Shown one piece after another: positions 33,050-63,270 of a stretch of 64,000 bases of DNA. The stretch's first letter is position 1, and every line of letters begins with the position of its first letter. The stretch is taken from NCBI RefSeq assembly GCF_988242995.1, contig NZ_OZ547043.1; one strand, written 5' to 3'. The position numbers and the translations under genes were made by a program. The notes under the pieces are model-generated. The model did no database searches. It saw nothing but the letters and a program-made list of their open reading frames with translations, and had not been told where the DNA came from.

Positions 33050-33762
33050 AATAAATATCCTCCGGCATAGCCGGAGGTTTTTCAAATGCGCCTATAAGGC
33101 TCTCTTACCAGCCGCGCCCTAACAGGCGCACACGATCTGACATTTGCATCCAACTTCGTTACTTACGGCCCGTAAACGGGCTGCCCGGATAGGGAATCGA
33201 TAACTGCTCTCCCATTTTATCCTCTTCAAGCTGGTGCTTTATGTAATCCTGTATCTTCGCCGTGTTCTTACCCACTGTATCGACGTAGTACCCTCTGCAC
33301 CAGAACTCCCTGTTCCTGTATTTGAATTTCAAATCACCAAACTGCTCGTAAAGCATCAGACTGCTTTTCCCTTTCAGATATCCCATAAACCCGGATACGC
33401 TCATTTTGGGCGGGATCTCCACAAGCATATGGATATGATCTGCACAGCATTCAGCTTCCAGAATCCGTACGCTTTTCCACTCACACAGCTTTCTCAAAAT
33501 ACTGCCTATTGCTCTACGCTTCTCTCTGTAGAACACCTGTCTTCGGTATTTTGGCGCAAAAACTATGTGATATTTACAGTTCCATCGGGTGTGCGCTAAG
33601 CTCTTTTCGTTCCCCATTGGGACCCCCTTTTGATTTCTTGTTTGACACTTGCAGTTGCCAGACCGCAAAGTGTTTTAACAAATCAAAAGGGGTTTTAATA
33701 ACTGGCTCAAAGCTGAAAGCTTTCCGGAACCCCCAGCCTAGCTGGGGGTTTTCTGTGCACAA
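33050..33762 (-). mobile_element. IS200-type insertion sequence (IS200/IS605 family), copy A
   Basis: ~713-bp unit whose reverse complement matches 62558-63270 along its whole length by eye; encodes a 152-aa HuH Y1 transposase; sits between convergent feaB and tynA. Confidence 0.8.
33159..33617 (-). CDS. tnpA: IS200/IS605-family transposase TnpA (Y1 HuH)
   Basis: 152 aa from MGNEKSLAHTRWNCKYHIVFAPKYRRQVFY; the track ORF has an upstream extension. Confidence 0.85.
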   Translation of the reverse strand: MGNEKSLAHTRWNCKYHIVFAPKYRRQVFYREKRRAIGSILRKLCEWKSVRILEAECCADHIHMLVEIPPKMSVSGFMGYLKGKSSLMLYEQFGDLKFKYRNREFWCRGYYVDTVGKNTAKIQDYIKHQLEEDKMGEQLSIPYPGSPFTGRK

Positions 33763-33763
33763 G

Positions 33764-33792
33764 TAAAAAACGGCACCTGGTGCCGTTTTTTT
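33764..33792 (-). terminator. Bidirectional terminator hairpin downstream of tynA
   Basis: A7-cggcacc-ggtgccg-T7. Confidence 0.55.
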
Positions 33793-33804
33793 AGTCTGAA
33801 ACAA

Positions 33805-36078
33805 TCACTTATCTTTCTTTAGCGCCCCTAGCGTTGGCGTTTCGTCAAAGAAGTTCCATGGTTTCAGCAGGGTATGTACCCATTCGGTCGGCATAATCGG
33901 CCACTCTTCGGCGCGGGCCACATGTGTGGTGCCGGTGGTCATCCAGACAACGGCGTCGGTGTTGTCCAGCGACTCGTTATCTTTACTGTATTGTCCAAGA
34001 CCGGTGTCATGAGTAGAACGGTTCGGATATTTGCCTTCCGGGAAACGCTCGCCAGGATGATAACGCGTTACCCAGAGCTGCTTGTCCATAAAGCTTAAAC
34101 GATGATAGATCCACTCGTCCGGCGCGAACTGGGCACCTTTTGCTACCGGGTGAGTACCACCTGCATAAGGAATAATTTGATAGGAAACCGGATTGCCCAT
34201 GCGGTTCTCTTTGTTCAGGTTACTCAACAGACGAATCGTGCCCGGATCAAACTTCTGCGCGGCATCCTGTTCATTGCCGATGTTGTACTGATTAACTTGC
34301 ATGGTACTGGTGCGTGGGCCACCGGCAGTATTCGGTTTTACCACCGGGTCCATCGCCACCAGGCTGTTATTCTCGCCATCTACATCCAGATCGAGGCGGA
34401 AATTATAAATATGTTGGTGTGTAGTACCCACTATATTGTGATCGATAAGCGTGCCGTAGCGCGTGTCATCTTTCGCCGTCTCATCGTGCATGGTTTTCGC
34501 TTTAACACCTTTCACCGCTTCGATGCCCGTAGCACCGGCATCAATGCCAATAGTGCCGTTTTCATGGAAGATCCAGTCAAAAATGTAGTCATAGTTACCC
34601 ACTGTACTGATCCAGCGCACCACCAACTCCCGGCGTTCGGTACTGACGTTGGGCTGGCCCATTTCCTGATGCTTATACTCAGGCCCGGCATAACGTTCAA
34701 ATACCGCGATAGCGCGAGGGATCTCCATCGGCACGCCAGTGTAGTCGGCGATGGTTTCATTAAGGAGCACTGCGTTAGACGGTGCATCTTTACCACGAGC
34801 AATTGGTGAGGTTAGCGTGCCCATACCGTAGTCACCAGAGTCCAGATACGCTTTAAAGTACCAGCCAATATCAGGATCACCGTAAGGCACAATCATGCCG
34901 CCGAGAGAACCTTCGTACATGACTTTGCGTTTGGTGCCATTGTCGTTATAAGTCACGGTGGAGATCATCGGCCCGACGCGAGAGTTCATGCTGAGGTGAA
35001 AATCCCAGTTACGCCAGTGAATCATATCGCCAGTAATGGTGTAATTTTTACCTTCAGGCTCGATGATTTGCATAGGTTTAACTGCCGGAGCAATGCGGTC
35101 ACGGCCATCAAATGGGCGTGCGGTCATTGGCACCGGAACTACCGGACCTTCTTCAATCTTAACGATTTTTTTCTGTTCTAAGTCAACGACCGCCACCAGG
35201 TTTTCGATGGGATGTGCCCAGTAGTTGCCATCACCAACATCAAGATAGCTGATGACTTTGAGCAACCGGGCATCTTGTTTCAGGCCATCTTTACCATCGA
35301 AATAACCTACGGTCAGCGGCGTGGTAATCACTTTCTTCGCATCAGTAATACCGCGCTTCTTCACGGCAGCGGCAAATTCTTCACTGTTGTTAATAATGTT
35401 CTGCACACTGGCGAAATCATCCAGCAACACCATACCGTGGGCGTCTTTAATGGGTTGCCAGGAGAGCAGTTTGTTGTTTTGCAGATCCACCACCGCTTCG
35501 ATGATATGTTTGCCGTCGAGCATAATGACGTCGGCTTTGCGCGGCTGGTCAACTGGTTTGTTTTCGAGCGCAAACGCCCAGACAGCTTCTTTATCTGGCG
35601 GTAGCAGGGAGATCTCAGTAAAACGGGTATTGGGTTTGAAGTCCGCGGAAGCTTTAACAATTTCAACGGCCTGTTTAATTTCGTCCGCAGTTAGCGCATT
35701 AAGTGGGTGAGGGCGCTTTTCTACCTGAAAGGTTTGATCCAGCCCGGACTGGAAAACATCGTTAATAAAGGTGTCAGAAACCCAGGCTTTATTGTCTTTC
35801 ATCACTACCGGGACTTGCAGTGCCAGAGGCTGACCATTAACAATTGCTGTTTGCGCACCAGGCTTCACTTTCACGTACGCGCCATCTTTAATCAGGGTAA
35901 AGATCTGGGCGTAGTCGTCCCACTGCACATCGGCACCAAATTCTTTAAGCGTTTTATCCATTGGCACCATATGCGCTTCACCACCGTGGGCAAATACCGG
36001 CGCTTGCCAGGCGAAACTTAAGGCGACTGCCAACGCCAGGGCTGTTTTACGGGCAGAATACAGAGAGGGGCTTCCCAT
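33805..36078 (-). CDS. tynA: Periplasmic copper/topaquinone amine oxidase (tyramine oxidase)
   Basis: 757 aa from MGSPSLYSARKTALALAVALSFAWQAPVFA, in frame with the track ORF. Confidence 0.9.
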   Translation of the reverse strand: MGSPSLYSARKTALALAVALSFAWQAPVFAHGGEAHMVPMDKTLKEFGADVQWDDYAQIFTLIKDGAYVKVKPGAQTAIVNGQPLALQVPVVMKDNKAWVSDTFINDVFQSGLDQTFQVEKRPHPLNALTADEIKQAVEIVKASADFKPNTRFTEISLLPPDKEAVWAFALENKPVDQPRKADVIMLDGKHIIEAVVDLQNNKLLSWQPIKDAHGMVLLDDFASVQNIINNSEEFAAAVKKRGITDAKKVITTPLTVGYFDGKDGLKQDARLLKVISYLDVGDGNYWAHPIENLVAVVDLEQKKIVKIEEGPVVPVPMTARPFDGRDRIAPAVKPMQIIEPEGKNYTITGDMIHWRNWDFHLSMNSRVGPMISTVTYNDNGTKRKVMYEGSLGGMIVPYGDPDIGWYFKAYLDSGDYGMGTLTSPIARGKDAPSNAVLLNETIADYTGVPMEIPRAIAVFERYAGPEYKHQEMGQPNVSTERRELVVRWISTVGNYDYIFDWIFHENGTIGIDAGATGIEAVKGVKAKTMHDETAKDDTRYGTLIDHNIVGTTHQHIYNFRLDLDVDGENNSLVAMDPVVKPNTAGGPRTSTMQVNQYNIGNEQDAAQKFDPGTIRLLSNLNKENRMGNPVSYQIIPYAGGTHPVAKGAQFAPDEWIYHRLSFMDKQLWVTRYHPGERFPEGKYPNRSTHDTGLGQYSKDNESLDNTDAVVWMTTGTTHVARAEEWPIMPTEWVHTLLKPWNFFDETPTLGALKKDK

Positions 36079-36248
36079 TATTAACCTCGTCAGATGTTGT
36101 GTTCTTGTTAGCAACCGCGCTCTGTGGGCGGTTTAGTCAGGTTCACATTATCAGTACTGATGTAAAGGGGATTGCCTGCACCTGCCAGGTTGTTTGGCAG
36201 GTGTGCCAGCTTTTCATACAGTGAGTGCCCTGAAAATACAGATACACA

Positions 36249-36263
36249 TCATGCATAATGTGA
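36249..36263. promoter_or_regulatory. TGTGACA-ACG-TCACA palindrome upstream of tynA (candidate FeaR site)
   Basis: Same TGTCAC motif family as in the feaB promoter region. Confidence 0.35.
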
Positions 36264-36276
36264 CAACGTCACAAAA

Positions 36277-36306
36277 TTTGGTGAAATAAAAGGGCAACTA
36301 TTCGCC
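36277..36306 (-). terminator. Intrinsic terminator downstream of paaZ
   Basis: Minus strand: aagggcaac-ggcgaata-gttgccctt followed by TTTATTT. Confidence 0.5.
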
Positions 36307-36325
36307 GTTGCCCTTCATTGACCGA

Positions 36326-38371
36326 TTAATCGACAAAATCACCGTGCTGCCTGGCCACCAGCGTCAGAATTGAATACAGCGCCACCGGGGTTTGATGCTG
36401 ATTGAATACCTCTACCGACCATTCCACTACACCTGTTGGTTTTTCTTCTGCGCTACGCTGTTTTTTCAGCGTCTTGCGCTTACAGGTGAGACGCACCTGG
36501 ATGGTATCGCCTGGTTTTACGGGTTCGATAAAACGCAAGTTTTCCAGCCCGTAGTTAGCAATGACCGGACCAACTCCGGCATCGACAAACAGACCCGCAG
36601 CCGCAGAAAGCACAAAATACCCATGCACCACCCGCTCACCGAAAATAGATTCGGCAGCGGCAATTTTATCCATATGTGCATAGAAATGATCGCCGCTGAG
36701 GCAAGCAAAGTTAACAATATCGGCCTCTGTCATTGTGCGGCGGGGGGTCAGCAGGCTGTCGCCTGGTTGCAACTCCTCAAAATATTTGCGGAACGGATGA
36801 ATACGATCTTCTTCGACTTTCGCACCGCGCACCCACTGTTTACTGATAGCGGCAAGCATCGTCGGACTACCCTGAACAGCGGTTCGCTGCATGTAATGTT
36901 TCACCGCTCGTAAACCACCTAATTCTTCACCGCCTCCTGCGCGACCAGGCCCACCATGTAACAGTTGTGGCAGTGGGGAGCCATGCCCGGTGGATTCTTT
37001 TGCCGATTCTTCATTGAGGATCTGAATTCGCCCATGCGTACGCGCCGCGTCGGCAATAAACTGACGCGCAATTTGCGGATCAGCCGTCACCAGCGTTCCC
37101 GCAAGGCTACCACCGCCTGCACAAGCCAGTTGCAGAGCATGTTGCTGGTTTTGTGCTGGCATCAGCGTTGCGACAGGGCCAAAGGCTTCTGTTGCATGTA
37201 CCGCCGGTGTTTCATCCGGCTGCGGACAGTACAATAAGGTTGGCGGGAAGAATGCACCCGCAGCAGATAAATCCGCCTGACCACCGAGGCGAATCTCGCA
37301 TCCTGCAGCCAGCAATGTGTTCACTTTTTCCTGCACATCGGCACGCTGTTCAGCATTTACCAGTGCGCCCATTTTCACGCCTTCCTGCCCAGGATCACCG
37401 ACCACGACTTTCTGTAATCGCGCAACCAGAGCATCACTGACAGCATTAACCAATGCCTGCGGCACAATAATCCGCCGGATTGCCGTACATTTTTGCCCGG
37501 CTTTTGTGGTCATCTCACGCACAACTTCACGAATAAACAGTGCAAACTCCGGTTGATCCGGGGTGACATCTTCGCCCAGTACGCAGCAGTTCAGGGAATC
37601 AGCTTCCATGGTGAAGGGGATAGATTTGGCGACGATATTTGGCTGAACACGTAGCATCTGTCCGGTCGTCGCAGAGCCCGTGAAAGTCACCACATCCTGG
37701 CTGTCCAGATGATCCAACAAGTCGCCCGCACTACCGCAGATCAGACTAATTGCGCCTTCGGGAACAAGACCACTATCGACAATTGATTTTACCATCGCCT
37801 GAGTCAGTTGGGCAGTCGCGGTGGCAGGTTTGATGATGGCTGGCATTCCGCCCAGCCACGTTGGTGCCAGCTTTTCCAGCATTCCCCAGCAGGGGAAGTT
37901 AAAGGCGTTAATATGCACTGCCACGCCTGACTTTGAGGTCAGTACATGGCGCGCGGCAAATCCACCTTCTTTCGATAAGGGGATCAATTCATCTTCCGGC
38001 CACAGCGTATCGTCAGGCAGCTCCCGGCTACCGAGGCTGGCGTATGTAAATAACGTCCCAATGCCACCTTCAATATCAACCCAACTGTCTGCCCGCGTTG
38101 CGCCTGTTTGTGCAGAAAGAGCATAGAAACGCTCTTTTTCACTCAGCAGATGTTTAGCGACCGCTTTAAGCATCGCCGCACGTTCGATAAAGGTCATAGC
38201 GCGGAGGGCGGGGGCACCTTTTTCAATGGCAAACTGGCGGGCAGCCGCCATATCAAGACCTTCACTGGTCACTTCCCATAACGCCTCGCCGCTAATGGCG
38301 TGGTGAATCAAACGGCTACGGCCCCGGCCAGACTGCCAGGTACCGGATAAGAAACTGGCTAACTGCTGCAT
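36326..38371 (-). CDS. paaZ: Bifunctional oxepin-CoA hydrolase / aldehyde dehydrogenase PaaZ
   Basis: 681 aa; aldehyde dehydrogenase domain plus C-terminal MaoC-like hotdog domain. Confidence 0.9.
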
Positions 38372-38603
38372 CGCTACTCTCCAGATGTTTCACATTTCTG
38401 TTGCTAATAGTTAAATCGCGAATCATAAAAAGCAAGTGGTCTTTTAACGAAATGTTAACTATGCGATCTGTATAGCAACTGCGAAAAACATTAATGCACT
38501 GATAAATAATGATTTATAAAAATAGGGTGCGAAATTCGTCACAGTTCAAACATACAAAATTTGTGATTTTAGTTAACCATTGTGTAACTTTCATAAAACA
38601 ACG

Positions 38604-38642
38604 TGATTCGTGTTTTTAATTAAATCACGAAATCTGGAATCG
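38604..38642. promoter_or_regulatory. Candidate PaaX operator in the paaA promoter
   Basis: TGATTC-N27-GAATCG, one mismatch to the TGATTC-N27-GAATCA consensus as I recall it, just upstream of paaA. Confidence 0.45.
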
Positions 38643-38655
38643 TAAAGGTGATGAC

Positions 38656-39585
38656 GTGACCCAAGAAGAACGCTTTGAGCAACGGATAGCCCAGGAAACG
38701 GCTATCGAGCCGCAGGACTGGATGCCCGATGCTTACCGAAAGACATTGATCCGCCAGATTGGGCAGCATGCGCACTCCGAGATTGTGGGTATGTTGCCTG
38801 AAGGTAACTGGATCACTCGCGCACCAACCTTGCGGCGTAAAGCCATTCTGTTAGCCAAAGTGCAGGATGAAGCCGGTCATGGTCTGTATCTCTATAGCGC
38901 CGCCGAAACACTGGGCTGCGCCAGAGAAGACATCTACCAAAAAATGCTCGACGGACGGATGAAATATTCCTCCATCTTTAATTATCCGACATTGAGTTGG
39001 GCTGATATCGGTGTTATCGGCTGGCTGGTGGATGGCGCAGCGATCGTCAATCAGGTGGCGTTATGCCGCACTTCTTATGGCCCGTATGCCAGAGCAATGG
39101 TGAAAATCTGCAAAGAAGAGAGTTTTCACCAGCGTCAGGGGTTTGAAGCCTGCATGGCACTGGCGCAGGGCAGCGAAGCTCAAAAGCAGATGTTGCAAGA
39201 CGCCATTAACCGTTTCTGGTGGCCAGCCTTAATGATGTTCGGGCCAAACGATGATAACTCGCCAAACAGCGCCAGAAGTCTCGCCTGGAAAATCAAACGT
39301 TTCACCAACGACGAACTCCGCCAGCGTTTCGTGGATAACACCGTTCCACAGGTTGAAATGCTCGGTATGACCGTTCCTGACCCGGATCTGCATTTTGATA
39401 CTGAAAGCGGTCACTACCGCTTTGGTGAGATCGACTGGCAGGAGTTTAACGAAGTGATAAACGGTCGCGGAATTTGTAATCAGGAGCGGCTCGACGCCAA
39501 ACGTAAAGCCTGGGAAGAAGGTACCTGGGTACGGGAAGCTGCGCTGGCCCATGCACAAAAACAACATGCCTGTAAGGTCGCATAA
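38656..39585 (+). CDS. paaA: Phenylacetyl-CoA 1,2-epoxidase subunit A
   Basis: 309 aa, [14 protein letters not shown] (GTG start). Confidence 0.9.
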
Positions 39586-39596
39586 GGAGTTTCAAA

Positions 39597-39884
39597 ATGA
39601 GTAATGTTTACTGGCCGTTATACGAAGTTTTCGTGCGTGGCAAACAGGGCTTATCACACCGCCATGTTGGCAGTTTACATGCTGCCGATGAGCGGATGGC
39701 ACTGGAAAATGCCCGTGATGCTTATACCCGTCGTAGCGAAGGATGTTCAATTTGGGTGGTGAAGGCGAGTGAAATTGTTGCCTCGCAACCGGAAGAACGC
39801 GGTGAATTTTTTGATCCGGCTGAAAGCAAGGTCTATCGCCATCCAACGTTTTACACCATCCCTGATGGCATTGAGCACATGTGA
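39597..39884 (+). CDS. paaB: Phenylacetyl-CoA epoxidase subunit B
   Basis: 95 aa. Confidence 0.9.
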   Translation: MSNVYWPLYEVFVRGKQGLSHRHVGSLHAADERMALENARDAYTRRSEGCSIWVVKASEIVASQPEERGEFFDPAESKVYRHPTFYTIPDGIEHM

Positions 39885-39892
39885 GGTCGGAA

Positions 39893-40639
39893 ATGAATCA
39901 GTTAACGGCTTACACCTTGCGCCTGGGCGATAACTGCCTGGTGCTCTCCCAGCGGTTGGGTGAATGGTGCGGTCACGCACCGGAACTGGAAATCGATCTC
40001 GCACTGGCAAACATTGGCCTCGATTTATTAGGTCAGGCACGCAACTTCTTATCGTATGCCGCTGAATTAGCGGGAGAAGGCGATGAAGATACCCTGGCCT
40101 TCACCCGAGACGAGCGCCAGTTCAGCAACTTATTGTTGGTTGAACAACCAAACGGCAATTTTGCCGACACCATTGCACGCCAGTATTTCATCGATGCATG
40201 GCATGTGGCGCTCTTTACCCGTCTGATGGAAAGCCGCGAGCCGCAACTGGCGGCGATTTCTGCCAAAGCAATTAAAGAAGCTCGCTATCACCTGCGTTTT
40301 AGTCGTGGCTGGCTGGAGCGACTGGGCAATGGTACTGACGTATCAGGGCAAAAGATGCAGCAGGCCATCAACAAGTTGTGGCGTTTTACCGCCGAACTGT
40401 TCGATGCCGACGAGATTGATATTGCACTGAGTGAAGAGGGTATTGCGGTTGACCCACGCACTTTACGCGCAGCGTGGGAAGCCGAAGTTTTTGCCGGGAT
40501 CAACGAAGCCACATTGAACGTACCGCAAGAGCAGGCGTATCGCACTGGCGGTAAAAAAGGACTGCATACCGAACACCTTGGACCCATGCTGACAGAAATG
40601 CAGTATCTCCAGCGTGTCTTGCCCGGTCAGCAATGGTAA
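39893..40639 (+). CDS. paaC: Phenylacetyl-CoA epoxidase subunit C
   Basis: 248 aa from MNQLTAYTLRLGDN. Confidence 0.85.
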   Translation: MNQLTAYTLRLGDNCLVLSQRLGEWCGHAPELEIDLALANIGLDLLGQARNFLSYAAELAGEGDEDTLAFTRDERQFSNLLLVEQPNGNFADTIARQYFIDAWHVALFTRLMESREPQLAAISAKAIKEARYHLRFSRGWLERLGNGTDVSGQKMQQAINKLWRFTAELFDADEIDIALSEEGIAVDPRTLRAAWEAEVFAGINEATLNVPQEQAYRTGGKKGLHTEHLGPMLTEMQYLQRVLPGQQW

Positions 40640-40653
40640 CAGAGGAGATGGGT

Positions 40654-41151: not shown

Positions 41152-41158
41152 GGATGCC

Positions 41159-43781: not shown

Positions 43782-43782
43782 C

Positions 43783-46827: not shown

Positions 46828-46853
46828 GCATATCAACCTGCGAGTAACCTACA

Positions 46854-49790: not shown

Positions 49791-49822
49791 CAGATGTAAA
49801 ATTATTTTGTCCTTTTAATTAT

Positions 49823-49860: not shown

Positions 49861-50120
49861 AGTATTAAATCATACCGTTTTTTTCATTATATGATTATTT
49901 ATAATGGTAATTTGGTTTAATTTATAATATGTATAATATACACAATTCATATATTTCATGGTCTTTTTTTATTCATCTGAATTATAACTGTGAATTATCG
50001 TAAAGTATATTTGATTAGATAATAATCCACTGGCAATATAGGATGTCTTCAATGTTTTAAATAACTAATTGGTCGGGTTAGTGCATCCGGCTTTCTTTAT
50101 ATTCGCCAGAAGGATTTATT

Positions 50121-56100: not shown

Positions 56101-56612
56101 GCAACACGAACAAAACTGCTGATACCGACGTGAAACAGCAGTACCTGGAGTTCCGCAGCGAAGGAGCGAAGACTTTCGAACCGAGCGAAGGGCTGAAGGT
56201 CACACCATATGCGGGTGTGAAACTGCGTCACACACTGGAAGGTGGCTATCAGGAGCGCAATGCCGGAGACTTTAACCTGAATATGAACAGTGGTAGCGAA
56301 ACGGCGGTGGACAGCATCGTCGGGCTGAAACTGGACTATGCAGGTAAAGACGGCTGGAGCGCTAGCGCTACGCTGGAAGGCGGGCCGAACTTGAGCTACG
56401 CGAAGAGCCAGCGCACAGCAAGCCTGGCAGGTGCAGGCAGTCAGCACTTTAACATCGATGACGGTCAGAAGGGCGGCGGCATCAACAGCCTGGCAAGTGT
56501 CGGCGTGAAGTACAGCAGCAAAGAAAGTTCGCTGAATCTGGATGCGTACAACTGGAAAGAGGAAGGCATCAGCGACAAAGGCGTGATGCTGAACTTCAAG
56601 AAAACGTTCTAA
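50121..56612 (+). CDS. ydbA: Large autotransporter adhesin-like protein, uninterrupted
   Basis: 2163 aa: signal peptide, Pro/Asp/His-rich linker, about six and a half tandem 98-aa repeats, long beta-helix-like passenger, and a C-terminal beta-barrel translocator ending in F. Confidence 0.85.
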   Translation: MQRKTLLSACIALALSGQGWAADITEVETTTGEKKNTNVTCPADPGKLSPEELKRLPSECTPLVEQNLMPWLATGAAALITTLAVVELNDDDDHHHRNNSPLPPTPPDDDSDDTPVPPTPGGDEIIPDVPDDTPTPPKPISFNNDVILDKTEKTLTIRDSVFTYTENADGTISLQDNSGRKATINLWQIDEANNTVALEGVSADGTTKWRYNHNGELVITGDNATVNNNGKTTVDGKDSTGTEINGNNGKVIQDGDLDVSGGGHGIDITGDSATVDNKGTMTVTDPESIGIQIDGDKAVVNNEGDSTISNGGTGTQINDDDATANNNGKTTVDGKDSTGTEINGNNGKVIQDGDLDVSGGGHGIDITGDSATVDNKGTMTVTDPESMGIQIDGDKAIVNNEGESTITNGGTGTQINGDDATANNNGKTTVDGKDSTGTEINGNNGKVIQGGDLDVSGGGHGIDITGDSATVDNKGTMTVTDPESIGIQIDGDKAVVNNEGDSSISNGGTGTQINGDDATANNSGKTTVDGKDSTGTEINGNNGKVIQDGDLDVSGGGHGIDITGDSATVDNKGTMTVTDPESIGIQIDGDKAIVNNEGDSTISNGGTGTQINGDDATANNNGKTTVDGKDSTGTEINGNNGKVIQDGDLDVSGGGHGIDITGDSATVDNKGTMTVTDPESMGIQIDGDKAIVNNEGESTITNGGTGTQINGDDATANNNGKTTVDGKDSTGTEINGNNGKVIQDGDLDVSGGGHGIDISGDNAAVDNKGNMTVTDADSIGVLINGDNATLANTGDVDVSNSATGFAITSDEGKISLAGSMQVGDFSTGLTLTGDNNSLTMAMQDLNVVGQKATGINVSGDANTIDITGNILVDKDQSADNAAEYFYDASVGVNVSGHNNNVTLDGKLTLVADGETTTRDVSNFDGSQENISGLIVSGDGNNINLNGGIAFVGEINALTDGSAIANKRTFFGNTPLIGIDGESKVYLNGDSTISGDLQLGYASLIQLKNKAAIEIGSEATFNMRDIENYDHYYAQTPQIIKAESSSEVINNGNVDIWNISFAGIFGENTTGINNGNITLSLYDYASTNTPAPEPDNTAFLTSNGGSAVNKGVITSKVMEQHSVVNMAALTGSTDQRVFNNSVASMMGMEAYNKGSVLNAEDAVIDMYGRGSIGMLAIDNSTADNAGNITVDTLWIDDNDTTSLHTDLPGATAKDYGVGMATGTDTGGGARNNAIATNLEGGVITVYNAGAGMAAYGNSNMVINQGIINLEKNADYDANLGSNTLVGMAVYKGATAINDQTGVININVDTGQAFYNDGTGIILNYGEINLNGAEIDSTDSHYGAPAENLELLSELSASGENITKTVIRDGFVTIKPLANYGTEILNGDVDANLWLYNEDKASLTVNGDLNIVQGLENSGSMDADKLTANASVYNRASGSMTTELLMLKGGSAFFNEGSFSGVISGDSYKQNVVNTGEMTTVTDGSALINGSFVLYNEAGSTLTNSGNAIAGGENAIVNITRTSDSLSQVNRGKITATNGYSAIKTASTASNSNGKWIWNTETGVINGINPDAPLIDLGRGYNFANAGTINVQGDGSVAISGGTTSYTVQLVNSGTINVGTEQGKADGSNGEGLIGIKGNGSATTINNTKDGVINVYADNSWAFGGSTKAIVNNGIINLLCNIGCEIYAPNTTGTRNSQDGTADIIVPVASATPGQGNVPAAPVNAVSQQKLTNYTIGTNSDGSSGTLKANNLVISDNVKVNTGFSAGTADTTVVIDDVFKGENISGAENITSSSVVWNAKGSTDASGNVDVTMSKNAYTDVATDASVNDVAKALDAGYTNNELYTSLNVGTTAELNSALKQVSGSQATTVFREARVLSNRFSMLADAAPKVGNGLAFNVVAKGDPRAELGNNTEYDMLALRKTIDLSESQTMSLEYGIARLDGDGAQKAGDNGVTGGYSQFFGLKHQMSFDNGMNWNNALRYDVHNLDSSRSIAFSNTNKTADTDVKQQYLEFRSEGAKTFEPSEGLKVTPYAGVKLRHTLEGGYQERNAGDFNLNMNSGSETAVDSIVGLKLDYAGKDGWSASATLEGGPNLSYAKSQRTASLAGAGSQHFNIDDGQKGGGINSLASVGVKYSSKESSLNLDAYNWKEEGISDKGVMLNFKKTF
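50798..52560 (+). repeat. In-frame tandem repeats inside ydbA: 294-bp unit (98 aa), ~6.5 copies
   Basis: Recurring unit NNNGKTTVDGKDSTGTEINGNNGKVIQDGDLDVSGGGHGIDITGDSATVDNKGTMTVTDPESIGIQIDGDKAVVNNEGDSTISNGGTGTQINDDDATA with a few substitutions per copy. Confidence 0.85.
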
Positions 56613-56630
56613 TTTTTAGCACGTGATACA

Positions 56631-56666
56631 CAAACCGCAATGCTGATACAGGTTGCGGTTTTTTAT
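56631..56666 (+). terminator. Intrinsic terminator downstream of ydbA
   Basis: aaccgcaa-tgctgatacaggt-tgcggtt hairpin followed by TTTTTATT. Confidence 0.55.
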
Positions 56667-56819
56667 TGCCGGATGCGATGCTTTAGGCGTTTTGTTTTGG
56701 TGTCTTCAAGGACAATAGAGCAACTCATCCAGTAATCTTGTTTACGCCTTCGCATTATTTATCTCTTTTCGTTTCTATACTGATTTTTCTTAATCCGTTT
56801 TATTACAGGGCAGGGTGCG

Positions 56820-57680
56820 ATGAGCAGCAACACATTTACTCTCGGTACAAAATCCGTTAACCGTCTTGGTTATGGCGCGATGCAACTGGCAGGCCCTGGG
56901 GTTTTTGGCCCCCCAAGAGATCGCCACGTTGCTATAACCGTGCTGCGCGAGGCGCTGGCATTGGGCGTCAATCATATTGATACCAGCGACTTTTATGGTC
57001 CGCACGTCACCAATCAGATTATCCGCGAAGCGCTACATCCTTACTCTGACGACCTGACAATTGTCACTAAAATTGGTGCACGACGTGGTGAGGATGCTTC
57101 CTGGTTGCCCGCATTTTCTCCGGCAGAGCTGCAAAAAGCGGTACACGATAATCTACGTAATCTCGGCCTGGACGTACTGGATGTGGTTAACCTGCGCGTC
57201 ATGATGGGGGATGGTCATGGCCCGGCGGAAGGATCGATTGAAGCCAGCCTGACCGTGCTGGCAGAGATGCAACAACAAGGCCTGGTAAAACATATTGGCC
57301 TGAGCAACGTCACACCGACGCAGGTCGCAGAGGCGCGTAAGATTACCGAAATCGTCTGTGTGCAGAACGAATACAACATTGCTCATCGTGCTGATGACGC
57401 AATGATTGATGATTTGGCCCGCGTTGGCATTGCTTACGTGCCGTTCTTCCCGCTTGGGGGCTTTACGCCGCTGCAATCCTCCACACTTTCGGATGTAGCA
57501 GCGAGCCTGGGCGCAACACCAATGCAGGTGGCGCTGGCGTGGCTGTTACAACGTTCACCGAATATTTTGCTGATCCCAGGGACATCTTCTGTTGCGCATT
57601 TACGGGAGAATATGGCTGCTGAAAAATTGCATCTTTCTGAGGAAGTGTTGTCTACGTTGGATGGTATTTCGCGAGAATAA
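56820..57680 (+). CDS. ydbC: Aldo-keto reductase
   Basis: 286 aa; family motifs (GYGAMQLAG, IDTSDFYG). Confidence 0.85.
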   Translation: MSSNTFTLGTKSVNRLGYGAMQLAGPGVFGPPRDRHVAITVLREALALGVNHIDTSDFYGPHVTNQIIREALHPYSDDLTIVTKIGARRGEDASWLPAFSPAELQKAVHDNLRNLGLDVLDVVNLRVMMGDGHGPAEGSIEASLTVLAEMQQQGLVKHIGLSNVTPTQVAEARKITEIVCVQNEYNIAHRADDAMIDDLARVGIAYVPFFPLGGFTPLQSSTLSDVAASLGATPMQVALAWLLQRSPNILLIPGTSSVAHLRENMAAEKLHLSEEVLSTLDGISRE

Positions 57681-57749
57681 CGAGTCAGGCGCTCGCAGAT
57701 TGTGCTTAAGGAAGAGCACAAAGCGATAGAAAACAGGTAAGCGGATTGA

Positions 57750-57779
57750 GATGTGGACTGAATATCTACAGTCCACATC
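57750..57779. terminator. Strong hairpin between convergent ydbC and azoR (candidate bidirectional terminator)
   Basis: gatgtggact-(10 nt)-agtccacatc, a perfect 10-bp stem. Confidence 0.45.
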
Positions 57780-57793
57780 AAGATCGTGTCCGG

Positions 57794-58408
<615 letters not shown>

Positions 58409-58599
58409 TTATGGATGTTTGAATGGGCGATGCCCTGTTGCTTGTTGACACTTTATTCACAATCCTGCCACAGAGATAGCGCAATAAATCGAAGCCTATG
58501 TTCGAATTTATTGAACAACGCATAGAAAGCCGCGATGTGGTACTCTATATCTATCATTTAAAAGAAAATTAATCAGGCAGCCTACTGCCCACTAACGTT

Positions 58600-61500
58600 A
58601 TGACAGAACAACAAAAATTGACCTTTACGGCCTTGCAGCAGCGGCTGGATTCGCTGATGCTGCGCGACAGACAGCGTTTTTTACGCCGTCTTCACGGTGT
58701 GAAGAAGGTTAAAAATCCTGATGCACAACAGGCCATTTTCCAGGAGATGGCGAAAGAGATTGACCAGGCGGCAGGGAAAGTCCTGCTGCGTGAAGCGGCA
58801 CGTCCGGAAATTACTTATCCGGACAATTTGCCGGTTAGTCAGAAAAAGCAGGACATTCTCGAAGCAATTCGTGATCACCAGGTAGTGATCGTCGCCGGGG
58901 AAACGGGTTCCGGTAAAACGACTCAGCTACCGAAAATCTGTATGGAGCTGGGCCGCGGGATTAAAGGGCTGATCGGCCATACCCAGCCGCGTCGTCTGGC
59001 GGCACGAACGGTGGCCAACCGTATTGCGGAAGAGCTGAAAACGGAGCCGGGCGGTTGCATCGGTTACAAAGTGCGTTTCAGCGATCACGTAAGTGATAAC
59101 ACGATGGTCAAGCTGATGACCGACGGTATCCTGCTGGCGGAGATCCAGCAAGACCGCCTGCTGATGCAGTACGACACTATCATTATTGACGAAGCGCACG
59201 AACGCAGCCTGAATATCGATTTTCTGCTCGGCTATTTGAAAGAGTTGCTGCCGCGGCGTCCTGACCTAAAAATCATTATCACTTCCGCGACTATCGACCC
59301 GGAACGCTTTTCGCGCCACTTTAATAATGCGCCGATTATCGAAGTCTCCGGCCGGACCTATCCGGTGGAAGTGCGCTATCGCCCGATTGTTGAAGAAGCC
59401 GATGATACCGAGCGCGATCAGTTGCAGGCGATTTTTGACGCCGTAGACGAACTGAGCCAGGAAAGTCCCGGCGACATTCTGATCTTTATGAGCGGTGAGC
59501 GGGAAATTCGCGATACCGCCGATGCGCTGAACAAGCTGAACTTACGCCATACCGAAATCTTGCCGCTTTATGCGCGGCTTTCGAACAGCGAACAGAACCG
59601 CGTGTTCCAGTCGCACAGCGGACGGCGTATTGTGCTGGCGACCAACGTCGCGGAAACCTCGCTGACCGTACCGGGGATTAAATACGTTATCGACCCCGGT
59701 ACAGCACGTATCAGCCGCTACAGCTATCGCACCAAAGTGCAGCGTTTGCCGATTGAGCCGATTTCGCAGGCGTCTGCCAATCAGCGTAAAGGCCGCTGTG
59801 GTCGTGTGTCTGAAGGGATCTGTATTCGTCTCTATTCCGAAGACGATTTCCTCTCGCGCCCGGAGTTTACCGATCCGGAGATTCTGCGTACCAACCTGGC
59901 CTCGGTTATTTTGCAGATGACCGCGCTGGGGCTGGGTGATATCGCGGCGTTCCCGTTTGTCGAAGCACCGGATAAACGCAATATCCAGGATGGCGTGCGT
60001 CTGCTCGAAGAACTGGGCGCGATCACCACTGATGAACAGGCCAGCGCTTATAAACTGACGCCGCTCGGTCGCCAGCTCTCGCAGTTGCCTGTCGACCCAC
60101 GTCTGGCGCGTATGGTGCTGGAAGCGCAAAAACATGGCTGCGTGCGTGAGGCGATGATTATCACGTCCGCGCTCTCCATTCAGGATCCGCGCGAGCGTCC
60201 GATGGATAAACAGCAGGCATCGGACGAAAAACATCGCCGCTTCCACGACAAAGAATCCGACTTCCTCGCGTTTGTAAATCTGTGGAATTATCTCGGCGAG
60301 CAGCAAAAGGCGCTTTCTTCTAACGCCTTCCGTCGCCTGTGTCGTACCGATTATCTCAACTATCTGCGCGTGCGCGAATGGCAGGATATCTACACCCAGT
60401 TGCGTCAGGTAGTGAAAGAACTTGGCATTCCGGTTAACAGCGAACCGGCGGAGTATCGCGAAATTCACATCGCCTTACTGACCGGTTTGCTTTCCCATAT
60501 CGGCATGAAAGATGCCGATAAACAAGAATATACCGGCGCACGTAACGCGCGTTTCTCCATTTTCCCCGGTTCCGGCTTATTTAAAAAGCCGCCGAAATGG
60601 GTAATGGTGGCGGAACTGGTAGAAACCAGCCGCCTGTGGGGGCGCATTGCGGCACGCATCGACCCTGAATGGGTAGAACCCGTTGCTCAGCATTTGATTA
60701 AACGCACCTACAGCGAACCGCACTGGGAACGGGCGCAGGGCGCGGTGATGGCAACGGAAAAAGTCACTGTTTATGGTTTGCCGATTGTTGCTGCGCGTAA
60801 GGTCAACTACAGCCAGATCGATCCGACGTTATGTCGTGAACTCTTTATTCGCCACGCTCTGGTGGAAGGTGACTGGCAGACACGTCACGCATTCTTCCGT
60901 GAAAACCTGAAACTGCGGGCCGAAGTGGAAGAGCTGGAACACAAATCACGTCGCCGCGATATTCTGGTTGATGACGAAACGCTGTTTGAGTTCTACGACC
61001 AGCGCATCAGCCACGATGTAATCTCCGCTCGTCACTTCGATAGCTGGTGGAAAAAAGTCAGCCGCGAAACGCCTGATTTGCTCAACTTTGAAAAGAGCAT
61101 GTTGATCAAAGAAGGGGCGGAAAAAATCAGCAAGCTGGATTACCCGAACTTCTGGCATCAGGGCAATCTCAAGCTGCGTTTGAGCTATCAGTTTGAGCCC
61201 GGCGCGGACGCGGACGGTGTGACCGTGCATATTCCGCTGCCGCTGCTTAATCAGGTAGAAGATAGCGGGTTTGAATGGCAAATCCCCGGCCTGCGTCGTG
61301 AACTGATCATCGCACTGATTAAATCGTTGCCGAAACCGGTACGCCGTAATTTTGTGCCTGCACCAAACTACGCCGAAGCGTTTTTAGGCCGCGTCACACC
61401 GCTGGAGTTACCGTTGCTCGACAGCCTTGAGCGCGAGTTACGGCGGATGACCGGCGTTACCGTTGACCGCGAAGACTGGCACTGGGATCAGGTGCCTGAT

Positions 61501-62502
61501 CACCTGAAAATCACCTTCCGCGTGGTGGATGACAAAAACAAGAAGCTAAAAGAAGGGCGCTCTCTACAAGGTCTGAAAGATGCGCTGAAAGACAAAGTGC
61601 AGGAAACGCTGTCTGCGGTGGCGGATGACGGTATCGAGCAGAGCGGCTTACATATCTGGAGTTTTGGTCAGCTGCCGGAAAGCTACGAACAGAAGCGTGG
61701 CAACTATAAAGTGAAGGCGTGGCCAGCGCTAGTGGATGAACGCGACAGCGTGGCGATCAAACTGTTTGATAATCCGCTGGAACAAAAGCAGGCAATGTGG
61801 AACGGTCTTCGCCGTCTACTGCTGCTGAATATTCCCTCGCCAATCAAATATTTGCATGAGAAGTTGCCAAACAAAGCCAAGCTGGGGCTGTACTTTAACC
61901 CGTATGGCAAAGTGCTGGAGCTGATCGACGACTGTATCTCCTGCGGTGTGGATCAACTGATCGACGCCAATGGTGGCCCGGTCTGGACGGAAGAAGGCTT
62001 TGCTGCGCTGCATGAAAAAGTCCGCGCTGAACTGAACGACACGGTGGTGGATATTGCGAAGCAGGTCGAGCAAATCCTTACTGCAGTCTTCAATATCAAC
62101 AAACGCCTGAAAGGGCGGGTGGATATGACTATGGCGCTGGGGCTTTCTGACATCAAAGCGCAGATGGGCGGGTTGGTGTATCGCGGTTTTGTCACTGGCA
62201 ACGGTTTTAAACGGCTGGGCGACACGCTGCGTTATTTGCAGGCGATTGAAAAACGACTGGAAAAACTGGCGGTTGATCCGCATCGTGACCGTGCTCAGAT
62301 GCTGAAAGTCGAAAACGTCCAGCAGGCGTGGCAGCAATGGATCAACAAACTGCCGCCCGCACGTCGTGAGGATGAAGACGTGAAAGAGATCCGTTGGATG
62401 ATAGAAGAGTTGCGCGTTAGTTACTTCGCTCAACAACTTGGTACGCCTTATCCGATTTCAGATAAGCGTATTTTGCAGGCGATGGAGCAGATTAGCGGTT
62501 AA
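58600..62502 (+). CDS. hrpA: ATP-dependent RNA helicase HrpA (DEAH-box)
   Basis: 1300 aa; Walker A GETGSGKTTQ, DEAH motif (IIIDEAHERS). Confidence 0.95.
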   Translation: MTEQQKLTFTALQQRLDSLMLRDRQRFLRRLHGVKKVKNPDAQQAIFQEMAKEIDQAAGKVLLREAARPEITYPDNLPVSQKKQDILEAIRDHQVVIVAGETGSGKTTQLPKICMELGRGIKGLIGHTQPRRLAARTVANRIAEELKTEPGGCIGYKVRFSDHVSDNTMVKLMTDGILLAEIQQDRLLMQYDTIIIDEAHERSLNIDFLLGYLKELLPRRPDLKIIITSATIDPERFSRHFNNAPIIEVSGRTYPVEVRYRPIVEEADDTERDQLQAIFDAVDELSQESPGDILIFMSGEREIRDTADALNKLNLRHTEILPLYARLSNSEQNRVFQSHSGRRIVLATNVAETSLTVPGIKYVIDPGTARISRYSYRTKVQRLPIEPISQASANQRKGRCGRVSEGICIRLYSEDDFLSRPEFTDPEILRTNLASVILQMTALGLGDIAAFPFVEAPDKRNIQDGVRLLEELGAITTDEQASAYKLTPLGRQLSQLPVDPRLARMVLEAQKHGCVREAMIITSALSIQDPRERPMDKQQASDEKHRRFHDKESDFLAFVNLWNYLGEQQKALSSNAFRRLCRTDYLNYLRVREWQDIYTQLRQVVKELGIPVNSEPAEYREIHIALLTGLLSHIGMKDADKQEYTGARNARFSIFPGSGLFKKPPKWVMVAELVETSRLWGRIAARIDPEWVEPVAQHLIKRTYSEPHWERAQGAVMATEKVTVYGLPIVAARKVNYSQIDPTLCRELFIRHALVEGDWQTRHAFFRENLKLRAEVEELEHKSRRRDILVDDETLFEFYDQRISHDVISARHFDSWWKKVSRETPDLLNFEKSMLIKEGAEKISKLDYPNFWHQGNLKLRLSYQFEPGADADGVTVHIPLPLLNQVEDSGFEWQIPGLRRELIIALIKSLPKPVRRNFVPAPNYAEAFLGRVTPLELPLLDSLERELRRMTGVTVDREDWHWDQVPDHLKITFRVVDDKNKKLKEGRSLQGLKDALKDKVQETLSAVADDGIEQSGLHIWSFGQLPESYEQKRGNYKVKAWPALVDERDSVAIKLFDNPLEQKQAMWNGLRRLLLLNIPSPIKYLHEKLPNKAKLGLYFNPYGKVLELIDDCISCGVDQLIDANGGPVWTEEGFAALHEKVRAELNDTVVDIAKQVEQILTAVFNINKRLKGRVDMTMALGLSDIKAQMGGLVYRGFVTGNGFKRLGDTLRYLQAIEKRLEKLAVDPHRDRAQMLKVENVQQAWQQWINKLPPARREDEDVKEIRWMIEELRVSYFAQQLGTPYPISDKRILQAMEQISG

Positions 62503-62528
62503 CACTGCTATTTGCCTGATAAATCTAA

Positions 62529-62559
62529 AACCCGGTAAGCATTTAGCGCCGGGTTTTTT
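62529..62559 (+). terminator. Intrinsic terminator downstream of hrpA
   Basis: aacccgg-loop-ccgggtt hairpin followed by T6; IS200 copy B begins in or directly after the T-tract. Confidence 0.5.
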
Positions 62560-63270
62560 GTGCACAGAAAACCCCCAGCTAGGCTGGGGGTTCCGGAAAG
62601 CTTTCAGCTTTGAGCCAGTTATTAAAACCCCTTTTGATTTGTTAAAACACTTTGCGGTCTGGCAACTGCAAGTGTCAAACAAGAAATCAAAAGGGGGTCC
62701 CAATGGGGAACGAAAAGAGCTTAGCGCACACCCGATGGAACTGTAAATATCACATAGTTTTTGCGCCAAAATACCGAAGACAGGTGTTCTACAGAGAGAA
62801 GCGTAGAGCAATAGGCAGTATTTTGAGAAAGCTGTGTGAGTGGAAAAGCGTACGGATTCTGGAAGCTGAATGCTGTGCAGATTATATCCATATGCTTGTG
62901 GAGATCCCGCCCAAAATGAGCGTATCCGGCTTTATGGGATATCTGAAAGGGAAAAGCAGTCTGATGCTTTACGAGCAGTTTGGTGATTTGAAATTCAAAT
63001 ACAGGAACAGGGAGTTCTGGTGCAGAGGGTACTACGTCGATACAGTGGGTAAGAACACGGCGAAGATACAGGATTACATAAAGCACCAGCTTGAAGAGGA
63101 TAAAATGGGAGAGCAGTTATCGATTCCCTATCCGGGCAGCCCGTTTACGGGCCGTAAGTAACGAAGTTGGATGCAAATGTCAGATCGTGTGCGCCTGTTA
63201 GGGCGCGGCTGGTAAGAGAGCCTTATAGGCGCATTTGAAAAACCTCCGGCTATGCCGGAGGATATTTATT
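62558..63270 (+). mobile_element. IS200-type insertion sequence (IS200/IS605 family), copy B
   Basis: ~713 bp, reverse complement of copy A (33050-33762); the transposases differ at one residue (Tyr vs His in CCAD[Y/H]IHML). Confidence 0.8.
62703..63161 (+). CDS. tnpA: IS200/IS605-family transposase TnpA (Y1 HuH)
   Basis: 152 aa from MGNEKSLAHTRWNCKYHIVFAPKYRRQVFY. Confidence 0.85.
   Translation: MGNEKSLAHTRWNCKYHIVFAPKYRRQVFYREKRRAIGSILRKLCEWKSVRILEAECCADYIHMLVEIPPKMSVSGFMGYLKGKSSLMLYEQFGDLKFKYRNREFWCRGYYVDTVGKNTAKIQDYIKHQLEEDKMGEQLSIPYPGSPFTGRK

Follow-up and report, generated by a model that had tools for sequence, protein, structure and literature searches.

Within the IS200/IS605 family, whose members move by single-strand 'peel and paste' via a Y1/HUH transposase and from which genome-editing tools are now derived, IS200 is the smallest autonomous insertion sequence. 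Bacterial group II introns of class C (IIC) are also mobile, and target the 3' flank of the stem-loops of intrinsic terminators. For IS1541, Odaert et al. 1998 (J Bacteriol 180:178) are said to have found terminator-like stem-loops at 8/14 sites and to have proposed them as hot spots, and an association of IS200-type elements with terminators was noted before in a 2025 preprint. IS608 and ISDra2 carry guide sequences 5' of the feet of their hairpins (PMC5934647). Here, we describe two IS200 copies that lie in inverted orientation on an E. coli chromosome, each beside a host terminator, and compare their insertion sites with those of other IS200-group elements.

The stretch of DNA analysed (64,000 nt, hereafter the window) contains one inverted repeat pair found by repeat search, with 713-nt arms at 33050-33762 (minus strand) and 62558-63270 (plus strand), 28,795 nt apart. 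Exact, base-by-base alignment of the copies and their flanks shows the arms to be identical at 711/713 nt; chance falls far short of explaining 711 bp matched at 99.7% identity. The original prediction, made by eye from the letters alone, described near-identical copies of ~713 bp that differ in one codon, His versus Tyr. The near-identity stands, as does that codon (33437/62883; CAT, His61, in copy A and TAT, Tyr61, in copy B), while a second difference, synonymous at Gly76, had been overlooked (33390/62930, GGG versus GGC). The predicted length is right for the matching arms and not for the element: when empty sites of other E. coli are set against the occupied ones, each copy proves to be 711 bp of inserted DNA (Table 1), and the match runs longer because the outer TT is target sequence, coincidentally the same at both sites.

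Both copies are IS200, as predicted. Their transposases score 147.7 bits (copy A) and 142.1 bits (copy B) with the NCBIfam model transpos_IS200 (NF033573, cutoff 55), with a Pfam Y1_Tnp match (PF01797) at 4.4e-38, and copy B gives a full-length (1-124) match to Rfam STnc490 (RF01405, 144.6 bits versus a gathering score of 56). Near-identical copies carry the name IS200C in RefSeq, and the copy A protein is the tnpA product of RefSeq IS200C copies, since one such element differs only at non-coding position 92. PDB relatives of TnpA are 2ec2, 2f5g and 2a6m (IS608); H61, H63 and Y125 align with H64, H66 and Y127 of IS608 TnpA (2a6m). Each 711-bp copy carries a single ORF, tnpA, of 152 aa, and no tnpB. 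The element ends, GTGCAC…TTATT, have no inverted-repeat relation and instead lie near hairpins that fold at -18.7 kcal/mol (left end) and -15.9 kcal/mol (right end). IS200 is multi-copy, with up to 35-36 matching places per E. coli genome and strain-variable occupancy, and identical 711-bp copies are present at three loci.

Table 1. Window coordinates of the two IS200 copies, their target terminators and the segment between them.
Feature	Position	Strand	Basis or remark
IS200 copy A, 711 bp, GTGCACAG...GGATATTTATT on minus strand	33050..33760	-	repeat and base comparison, empty site
IS200 copy B, 711 bp	62560..63270	+	repeat and base comparison, empty site
tnpA copy A, 152 aa, intact HUH motif D60-H61-I62-H63 and Tyr125	33159..33617	-	profile and structure alignment
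tnpA copy B, 152 aa, H61Y, codon TAT at 62883-62885	62703..63161	+	score falls from 147.7 to 142.1 bits
Left-end hairpin (33728-33750) and 5'-UTR stem-loop, copy A	33627..33750	-	identical to 62570-62693, the STnc490 match
Left-end hairpin (62570-62592) and 5'-UTR structured RNA, copy B	62570..62693	+	Rfam STnc490
Right-end hairpin, copy A	33059..33077		terminator-like on both strands; TTTTT after stem on plus strand
Right-end hairpin, copy B, then ATATTTATT (9 nt) to element tip	63243..63261		terminator scan and folding
Bidirectional feaB/tynA intrinsic terminator, A7-stem-T6, copy A target	33765..33791	-	folding; empty site
hrpA intrinsic terminator, copy B target; hairpin 62527-62557, T-tract 62554-62559	62527..62559	+	folding; empty site
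Bracketed interval, 28.8 kb: tynA, paaZ, paaA-K, paaXY, ydbA, pdxI, azoR, hrpA	33761..62559		collinear with K-12

At both sites, tynA/feaB and hrpA, the same element end (the left, upstream of tnpA) abuts the T-tract of a terminator, as had been read from the letters. Copy A lies between the feaB stop codon and the common feaB/tynA terminator, its insertion point following TTTTTTACTT and lying 10 nt from the GC stem on the 3' side (junction ...CGGCACCAGGTGCCG-TTTTTTACTT^IS); the empty site in other E. coli reads ...GTTTTTTACTT^ATGCGCG, with a boundary ambiguous by 2 nt (TT). Copy B follows immediately after T6 of the hrpA terminator (junction ...CCCGG(13-nt loop region)CCGGG-TTTTTT^IS; empty site in other E. 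coli, GGGTTTTTT^CTTTATG). As RNA, the terminator hairpins fold at -15.2 kcal/mol (z = -5.1) at site A and -15.6 kcal/mol (z = -4.0) at site B. These host terminators were taken from direct folding; a consensus terminator scanner picked up only the IS right-end hairpins, missing the tynA terminator most likely because the A7/T6 tracts lengthen the stem and consume the T-tail, and the hrpA terminator because its 13-nt loop region is beyond the scanner's 3-8 nt limit. An Rfam Leu_leader match at 62482-62559 was rejected (19.5 bits versus a gathering score of 50) and corresponds to the hrpA terminator.

In empty-site genomes, the sequences on either side of each copy join directly, and each copy is therefore a simple insertion, clean and without target duplication. 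In other strains, occupancy of site A is independent of that of site B, and site A in strain SC418 holds an IS variant with 28 differences. At least 22 of 5,426 complete E. coli genomes carry a copy at the hrpA terminator, with hits at three distinct points or backbones (T6^, T6CTT^ and T6ATT^); this terminator has been struck at least three separate times in E. coli. IS200 presence or absence varies even between strains with 99.9-100% identical flanks, which indicates recent movement in this E. coli lineage. The neighbouring genes are left unharmed, with tynA and hrpA retaining their own terminators. Behind feaB there is now the IS right-end hairpin, which is terminator-like in the feaB direction and, being followed by TTTTT on the plus strand, can terminate feaB read-through; a post-terminator position also protects tnpA against read-through transcription. 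The pair is very probably two E. coli IS200C-type IS200 copies that inserted separately and simply 3' of terminators and today form a passive inverted repeat. A point against is that copy A runs counter to replication, as judged from a positive GC skew on the plus strand, which is the less favoured orientation under the lagging-strand-template model for IS608 and ISDra2 (PMC5027513).

A preference for hairpin targets, invoked in the original prediction for these two sites, proved to be a property of the group. A scan with the 23-nt left-end hairpin yielded at least 120 DNA stretches from Yersinia, Vibrio, Brenneria, Oxalobacter, Mailhella/Desulfovibrio and Bacillota MAGs, which together with the E. 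coli copies gave at least 126 unique left-end flanks, with 17 left-end-tip variants among those listed. A strong hairpin, defined as MFE <= -10 kcal/mol in the 38 nt ending 4 nt before the insertion, lies 5' of the left end in 95.2% of the 126 listed flanks, a set dominated by few element lineages and including 52 sites from one Y. pestis genome. Among the controls, random sites give 15.5%, T-matched sites 13.1% and 11.5%, and TTNTT sites in ORF-free DNA 15.8%. This folding-energy threshold replaced two earlier hairpin classifiers that gave 63% and 83%, under-calling extended stems and long loops; one T-matched control reached 37% under the early classifiers, probably inflated by lax criteria. 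With an independent detector demanding a G-C pair at the stem base, the distance from the foot of the GC stem to the insertion is 6-9 nt in 92/102 listed sites. The final two target bases are TT in 111/126 listed sites, with a consensus of TTNTT, and the left end invariably lies on the T-tail side of the terminator in the surveyed sites. Tandem IS-IS insertions are also found, in which the right end of a resident copy serves as the target.

The His/Tyr difference between the copies falls in the catalytic HUH motif, a placement absent from the original prediction. Copy A has H61-I-H63 and Y125, whereas copy B reads Y61-I-H63 and has lost the first His of the motif. Because this His belongs to the metal-binding HUH motif, the copy B transposase is, from its sequence, probably inactive, and copy B is probably non-autonomous and reliant on transposase from other copies. 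Among sampled IS200-group copies, position 61 is His in 60 and Tyr in 8, all eight being this E. coli allele. The Y61 allele is present at at least six loci, three of them with identical 711-bp sequence. Transposase acting in trans or gene conversion accounts for this distribution, although residual activity of the Y61 protein would fit it too.

The target appears to consist of a GC-rich hairpin with TTNTT 6-9 nt further on, laid out as in the right end of the element itself (hairpin plus ATATTTATT), and is complementary to the A-rich GAAAA that lies just 5' of both IS hairpins, where IS608 has its guide sequence. We infer this recognition mechanism from the site statistics and the likeness to IS608 (PMC5934647). 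The 6 nt 5' of targeted hairpins are weakly enriched in A (3.26 versus 2.68, p = 0.001), so targets need not copy the right end strictly, down to a guide of their own. The transposase-DNA complex may recognise any single-stranded hairpin followed after 6-9 nt by TTNTT, since this layout copies the right end; selection after insertion for harmless sites could add to the bias. Taken jointly with the H61Y allele, we offer a tentative reading, possible but short of probable, in which IS200-group elements are dedicated 'terminator-homing' transposons and a non-autonomous, HUH-defective allele spreads through E. coli by parasitising intact copies. If true, intrinsic terminators of the host would be natural landing pads across several bacterial phyla, and target choice would have a structural layer absent from the IS608/ISDra2 model. 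The two insertions are ordinary IS200 behaviour, and the terminator association was known before, though its near-universality, fixed spacing and right-end mimicry may be under-appreciated.

The same distribution could arise if insertion into T-rich DNA were roughly random and only copies in harmless, post-terminator places survived selection. Insertions 3' of convergent genes are expected to be neutral, and IS1541 is found also in inv and caf1A. IS200 is likewise able to insert into coding DNA, as in the polar hisD984::IS200 (PMC4513863). We nevertheless consider this explanation unlikely, because ORF-free TTNTT sites differ so widely from IS flanks in their rate of strong hairpins (15.8% against 95.2%; odds ratio 107, Fisher p = 2e-80), insertions keep a narrow range of distances from the stem foot (6-9 nt in 90% of listed sites) and the orientation is fixed, with the left end toward the T-tail. 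The same terminator is moreover struck repeatedly within 3 nt, and the right ends of resident IS copies, which selection would not specifically favour, serve as targets.

Genome comparison shows the gene order and orientation of the bracketed interval to equal those of K-12, as stated in the original prediction, and the 28.8-kb segment is therefore not inverted; ydbA (BigA-like) is intact within it. Could a single rearrangement, by intramolecular replicative transposition or as a composite transposon, have both created the second, inverted IS copy and flipped or mobilised the 29-kb segment? The geometry of an inverted pair around an accessory-like gene block would suit it, as would the absence of the paa/tynA cluster from some E. 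coli (e.g., strain 7/2), yet it is highly improbable: the flanks of both copies are contiguous in empty-site genomes, the order and orientation of K-12 are kept while K-12 itself has no IS200 at these sites, and sites A and B are occupied independently elsewhere. In addition, the family moves a single strand, on which the left end must be 5' of the right end (PMC5934647), and since both left ends here face inward on opposite strands, by that mechanism no left-end...right-end pair would span the interval. A composite transposon was rejected, as the outer ends make no left-end...right-end pair and the enclosed genes are in their native K-12 order.

The two separate insertions could, as a possibility that the original prediction soundly raised, still invert the 28.8 kb between them by RecA-dependent recombination. 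The inverted isomer was not found among 5,426 complete E. coli genomes, searched for feaB plus IS without tynA, nor among 24 same-lineage draft contigs encoding identical FeaB, of which 9 continue through the IS into tynA and 15 break within the IS. Short-pattern searches (<=600 nt) cannot separate the isomers, since every flank-IS junction survives inversion and the IS is 711 bp long. Over 8.5 kb, identity to draft assemblies such as GCA_051412695.1 is 100%. In a near-identical strain with the same site-A insertion, there is 1 mismatch in ~5.7 kb of flank versus 8 in the 711-bp IS; such mosaic copies indicate that IS200 copies recombine with each other. A passage of PMC8496262 cites Haack & Roth 1995 for IS200-mediated duplications, and IS1541-flanked amplifications have been published (PMC12755819).

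An identity of the units as REP-associated tyrosine transposase (RAYT/TnpA-REP) loci, in place of the mobile IS of the original prediction, has next to no probability, for although the two families share the Y1/HUH fold and copy A has weak similarity to the RAYT model NF047646 (32.2 bits versus a cutoff of 80, against 147.7 versus 55 for the IS200 model; a profile search gave no NF047646 match for copy B), E. coli has one RAYT copy, fixed in its locus and invariably flanked by REP/BIME (PMC3333891), whereas here two copies lie at unrelated loci within 64 kb, the element reaches up to about 34 copies per genome, its presence differs among near-identical strains, and its ends are IS200 hairpins with no REPs in the flanks.

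Short-read contigs of this lineage break at IS200 copies, and long-read assemblies of the lineage are the ones to check for both orientations of the 28.8-kb segment with paa, tynA and hrpA, for use in annotation and assembly. The survey yields a simple, strong landing rule for IS200-type elements (hairpin, 6-9 nt, TTNTT), which explains how these elements are tolerated at high copy number, helps to forecast insertion hot spots such as the hrpA terminator, and points to structure-guided target choice in the IS200/IS605 family.

Compared with IS200 of Salmonella enterica and E. coli (IS200C), the two copies are alike in size (~707-711 bp) and in having a 152-aa tnpA as sole gene. Similarly, they have the left-end hairpin that acts as a terminator, the 5'-UTR stem-loop that hides the ribosome-binding site, and STnc490/art200 (PMC4513863). 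They also have no inverted terminal repeats or target duplication, and no structural difference separates them from IS200, H61Y in the HUH motif being the distinguishing feature of copy B. IS200 is described in the literature as nearly immobile (PMC4513863), whereas here its sites vary between near-identical strains. IS1541, the IS200-like element of Yersinia pestis and Y. pseudotuberculosis, has the same 23-nt left-end hairpin and follows the same insertion rule, with a strong hairpin before the left end at 50/52 sites in Y. pestis; it differs in its left-end tip (GTGCCCAGAA versus GTGCACAGAA) and in a far higher copy number in Yersinia. IS608 of Helicobacter pylori and ISDra2, the mechanistic models of the family, have in common with IS200 a Y1/HUH TnpA, end hairpins bound by TnpA and insertion 3' of a short motif that is kept beside the left end (PMC5934647). 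IS608, however, needs only the tetranucleotide TTAC and carries tnpB, while IS200 has no tnpB and its sites have a hairpin 6-9 nt upstream of TTNTT, a structural requirement not described for IS608. Class C group II introns are retroelements with a wholly different mechanism, and their likeness to IS200 lies in the target niche only.

A single long inverted repeat was found in the window by repeat search, with arms exactly where the original prediction had placed them, and base-by-base comparison of the arms gives an identity of 711/713. The prediction that the copies are identical save for one codon was partly right: transposase codon 61 encodes His (CAT) in copy A and Tyr (TAT) in copy B (33437/62883), but a second, synonymous difference in the Gly76 codon (GGG vs GGC; 33390/62930) had been overlooked. 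Strains ST2747 (L003) and 7/2 (L004) served as empty-site references for site A (feaB/tynA) and site B (hrpA), where the empty sequences read ...GGCACCAGGTGCCGTTTTTTACTT^ATGCGCG... and ...GCGCCGGGTTTTTT^CTTTATG..., respectively; 711 bp are added at each caret in the window, and the element is therefore 711 bp. Target duplications are absent at both insertions, and the insertion boundary can be placed only to within 2 nt, since target and element both finish in TT.

Features of the window, the IS200 element and insertions at hrpA
Feature	Position	Details
Tail module of lambdoid prophage, left end of window	1436-14525	tape-measure protein (TIGR01541), tail protein L, TipJ (2340 bits), side tail-fibre-like protein
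Fibre-like ORF	11167-13530	189-nt tandem repeat at 11668-12045
Inverted repeat, 713 nt	33050-33762 / 62558-63270	arms 28,795 nt apart
IS200 element, 711 bp, copies A (-) and B (+)	33050-33760 and 62560-63270	GTGCACAG...GGATATTTATT; basis: empty sites
Left end (upstream of tnpA)		perfect hairpin CCCCCAGC-TAG-GCTGGGGG; -18.7 kcal/mol by folding
5' UTR		structured; full-length Rfam STnc490 (RF01405) match, 144.6 bits vs gathering score 56
ORF		one reading frame, 152 aa
Right end		hairpin CCTCCGGC-TAT-GCCGGAGG, then ATATTTATT
Intact ydbA, 2163-aa BigA-like autotransporter	50121-56612	NF033178, score below cutoff; six 294-nt tandem repeats at 50781-52550
azoR directly after pdxI (ydbC)	57680-57794	~7-kb ydbD-ynbABCD block missing
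Small hypothetical-gene island between hrpA and ydcF	63271-64000	in the window's lineage (also L004, L141)
hrpA insertion point 1	after T6	window
hrpA insertion point 2	after T6CTT	strains 98224, EC21Z-151; IS variants 5 and 28 positions off copy B
hrpA insertion point 3	after T6ATT, K-12-type hrpA-ydcF spacer	PCN033, 30EVA1, HCP4S3_I4

The transposase matches NCBIfam transpos_IS200 (147.7 bits, cutoff 55) and Pfam Y1_Tnp (4e-38), can be aligned to solved IS200/IS605 transposases, with its His61, His63 and Tyr125 at the positions of IS608 TnpA His64, His66 and Tyr127, and near-identical copies carry the RefSeq label 'IS200C family transposase'. REP-associated tyrosine transposases (RAYTs) are present as one copy at a fixed, REP-flanked locus (PMC3333891). 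A RAYT reading is rejected by a RAYT model score of 32 bits (cutoff 80) and by an element that is multi-copy and varies in placement among E. coli genomes, and the original assignment to IS200 stands. A composite transposon is likewise ruled out by left ends that both face inward on opposite strands, and a single inverting event by the position of each copy within an otherwise intact site. The pair consists of ordinary IS200 insertions.

The His/Tyr difference falls on residue 61, the first His of the HUH motif, which in HUH endonucleases coordinates the catalytic metal. Sampled IS200-group copies read DHIHML (58), EHIHML (1), DHVHML (1) or DYIHML (8), and all eight DYIHML copies are this E. 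coli allele. Loss of this His, along with a transpos_IS200 score 5.6 bits lower than that of copy A, argues that the copy B transposase is probably inactive, with element ends intact. Even so, 36 blocks of the protein collection contain the exact Y61 protein, which is encoded at six or more distinct E. coli loci (rplT-pheM, the icd side, fadR-ycgB, kdsA-ldr, site A of another strain, and hrpA of the window), with the rplT-pheM and icd-side copies identical to copy B at 711/711 positions. Mobilisation of Y61 elements by the intact transposase of a sibling copy, or gene conversion, would explain this spread; alternatively, the Y61 protein may be partly active.

As predicted, the same element end, the left, abuts the tynA and hrpA terminators, and folding confirms both hairpins, which also form as DNA. 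The copy A target is an A7-stem-T6 terminator common to convergent tynA and feaB (-15.2 kcal/mol, z = -5.1), and the copy B target is the hrpA terminator (-15.6 kcal/mol, z = -4.0). After insertion, tynA and hrpA retain their own terminators, and feaB (stop codon at 33035) reads into the IS right-end hairpin, which a terminator scan scores as terminator-like on both strands and which is followed by TTTTT on the feaB strand, so both insertions should be close to neutral for neighbouring genes. The terminator position should also protect tnpA from read-through transcription.

The exact 23-nt left-end hairpin was sought in one genome per species, yielding at least 120 DNA stretches; the matches listed include Yersinia pestis, several Vibrio, Brenneria, Dickeya, Edwardsiella, Pluralibacter, Oxalobacter, Mailhella/Desulfovibrio, and metagenome-assembled genomes (MAGs) labelled Bacillota, Peptococcaceae and Saccharibacteria. 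Together with E. coli copies, the matches listed gave 126 unique left-end flanks and 17 left-end-tip variants, and by visual inspection nearly all of these flanks have a GC hairpin and T-tract. A minimum free energy of -10 kcal/mol or lower, over 38 nt ending 4 nt before the insertion, was found for 95.2% of the 126 flanks (median -16.3), vs 15.5% of random positions in the same loci, 13.1% and 11.5% of two T-matched sets (Mann-Whitney p ~1e-67 for each), and 15.8% of ORF-free TTNTT controls (odds ratio 107, Fisher p = 2e-80). Among the same listed matches and E. coli copies, the G-C foot of the stem lies 6-9 nt from the insertion in 92/102 sites, and the final two target bases are TT in 111/126, with TTTTT, TTATT and TTGTT the commonest final five. 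The right end of IS200 is arranged like a target (a hairpin followed by 9 nt that finish in TTATT), and at survey loci resident right ends serve as targets, giving tandem copies. In Y. pestis (L070, L071, L073, L117), head-to-tail tandem copies of IS1541, the IS200-like element of Yersinia, have the left end exactly after the ATATTTATT tip of the neighbouring copy; tandem IS200 duplication is known in Salmonella LB5000 (PMC8496262).

The hairpin itself, AACCCCCAGCTAGGCTGGGGGTT, is conserved base-for-base across Gammaproteobacteria, Oxalobacter and Desulfovibrionaceae (Mailhella) (loci L005-L124), and occurs in MAGs labelled Bacillota, Peptococcaceae, Elusimicrobiaceae and Saccharibacteria, where MAG contamination is possible. 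Elements sharing it differ in left-end tip and downstream sequence, and its conservation reflects either very strong constraint or recent wide horizontal spread.

Of 5,426 complete E. coli genomes, one (strain SC418) has an insertion at site A, the IS variant with 28 differences, at exactly the same nucleotide as in the window, and at least 22 have one at the hrpA terminator, at three distinct points or backbones, always with the left end toward the terminator. These repeated occupancies look like independent insertions at the same hairpins. The hrpA terminator is a target both with the hrpA-ydcF island and on the K-12-type spacer, from which the island is missing; the first island ORF has no NCBIfam match. 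In L125 (GCA_034225025.1), an IS200 identical to copy B has the rplT terminator on one side and the pheM leader on the other, upstream of pheST, and a Yersinia IS1541 copy is known from the pheL-pheA interval (PMC3082878); elements may often land in leader/attenuator regions, where they could affect regulation. Part of the terminator bias may come from selection for harmless sites, but the ORF-free control, the stem-insertion spacing and the recurrence argue against it as the main cause.

In IS608, each end hairpin has a guide immediately on its 5' side that base-pairs with the cleavage and target tetranucleotides (PMC5934647). GAAAA(A) precedes both IS200 hairpins (GTGCACAGAAAA before CCCCC at the left end, TTTGAAAAA before CCTCC at the right), and by analogy this A-rich guide would read the TTNTT site, which fits the T-rich sequence of right-end tip and targets alike. 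The apparent need of IS200 for a hairpin 6-9 nt upstream has no counterpart in the IS608 model; the target hairpin may be bound as a pseudo right end, or a single strand may be better exposed beside an extruded hairpin. A-richness 5' of the targeted stems is weakly enriched at survey sites, suggesting that the target needs no guide of its own. GC skew is positive across the window, which places copy B in the direction of replication and copy A against it; the lagging-strand-template model of IS608/ISDra2 favours one orientation (PMC5027513), and that of copy A is the less favoured.

The gene order feaB(+), tynA(-), paaZ(-), paaA-K(+), paaXY, ydbA, pdxI, azoR(-), hrpA(+) is shared with K-12, where this region carries no IS200; the bracketed segment thus retains its ancestral orientation, and direct comparison bears out the view that it is not inverted. 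Elsewhere in the region, ydbA is interrupted by IS2 and IS30 in K-12, and ydbD-ynbABCD separates pdxI and azoR in K-12 and strain 7/2 (L140). Strain 7/2 is 99.9% identical to the window in its hrpA-side flanks and yet has no feaR-feaB-tynA-paa cluster, with ydbL followed directly by the autotransporter gene, so the region is mosaic between close relatives.

The pair had also been proposed to mediate inversion. L126 (GCA_002464975.1), from a near-identical strain, has the same insertion at site A, with 1 mismatch over ~5.7 kb of its flanks but 8 over the 711 bp of the IS, including the Y61 base and a block common to the divergent variant; this mosaic is a signature of ectopic gene conversion, indicating that copies recombine. 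IS200-mediated inversions were reportedly described in S. Typhi by Alokam et al. in 2002. IS200 copies support RecA-type duplications, according to the citation of Haack & Roth 1995 in PMC8496262, and IS1541 copies flank amplifications (PMC12755819). Inversion of the segment is possible, but no feaB-IS junction lacking tynA was found among the 5,426 complete genomes, and no inverted isomer in these or in 24 draft contigs encoding identical FeaB, of which 9 pass through the IS into tynA and 15 end ~111 nt into it. One contig of 74,254 nt (GCA_051412695.1) matches the window at 100% identity over the 8.5 kb compared and, if collinear, would end ~102 nt inside copy B, which suggests that in its lineage the two copies are present and arranged as in the window.

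Terminator-like stem-loops were reportedly noted at IS1541 sites in a 1998 study. A 2025 preprint finds terminator-like sequences on the upstream side of ISs, most strongly for IS200/IS605, and the structured ends, dormancy and RNA products of IS200 are already well documented (PMC4513863 among sources). The survey establishes no new kind of system. It sharpens the known association (95% of sites, fixed spacing, a TTNTT end and right-end resemblance), and the modest additions to what is known of IS200 are this quantitative statement of terminator homing, a still-spreading HUH-mutant allele, and gene conversion between copies.
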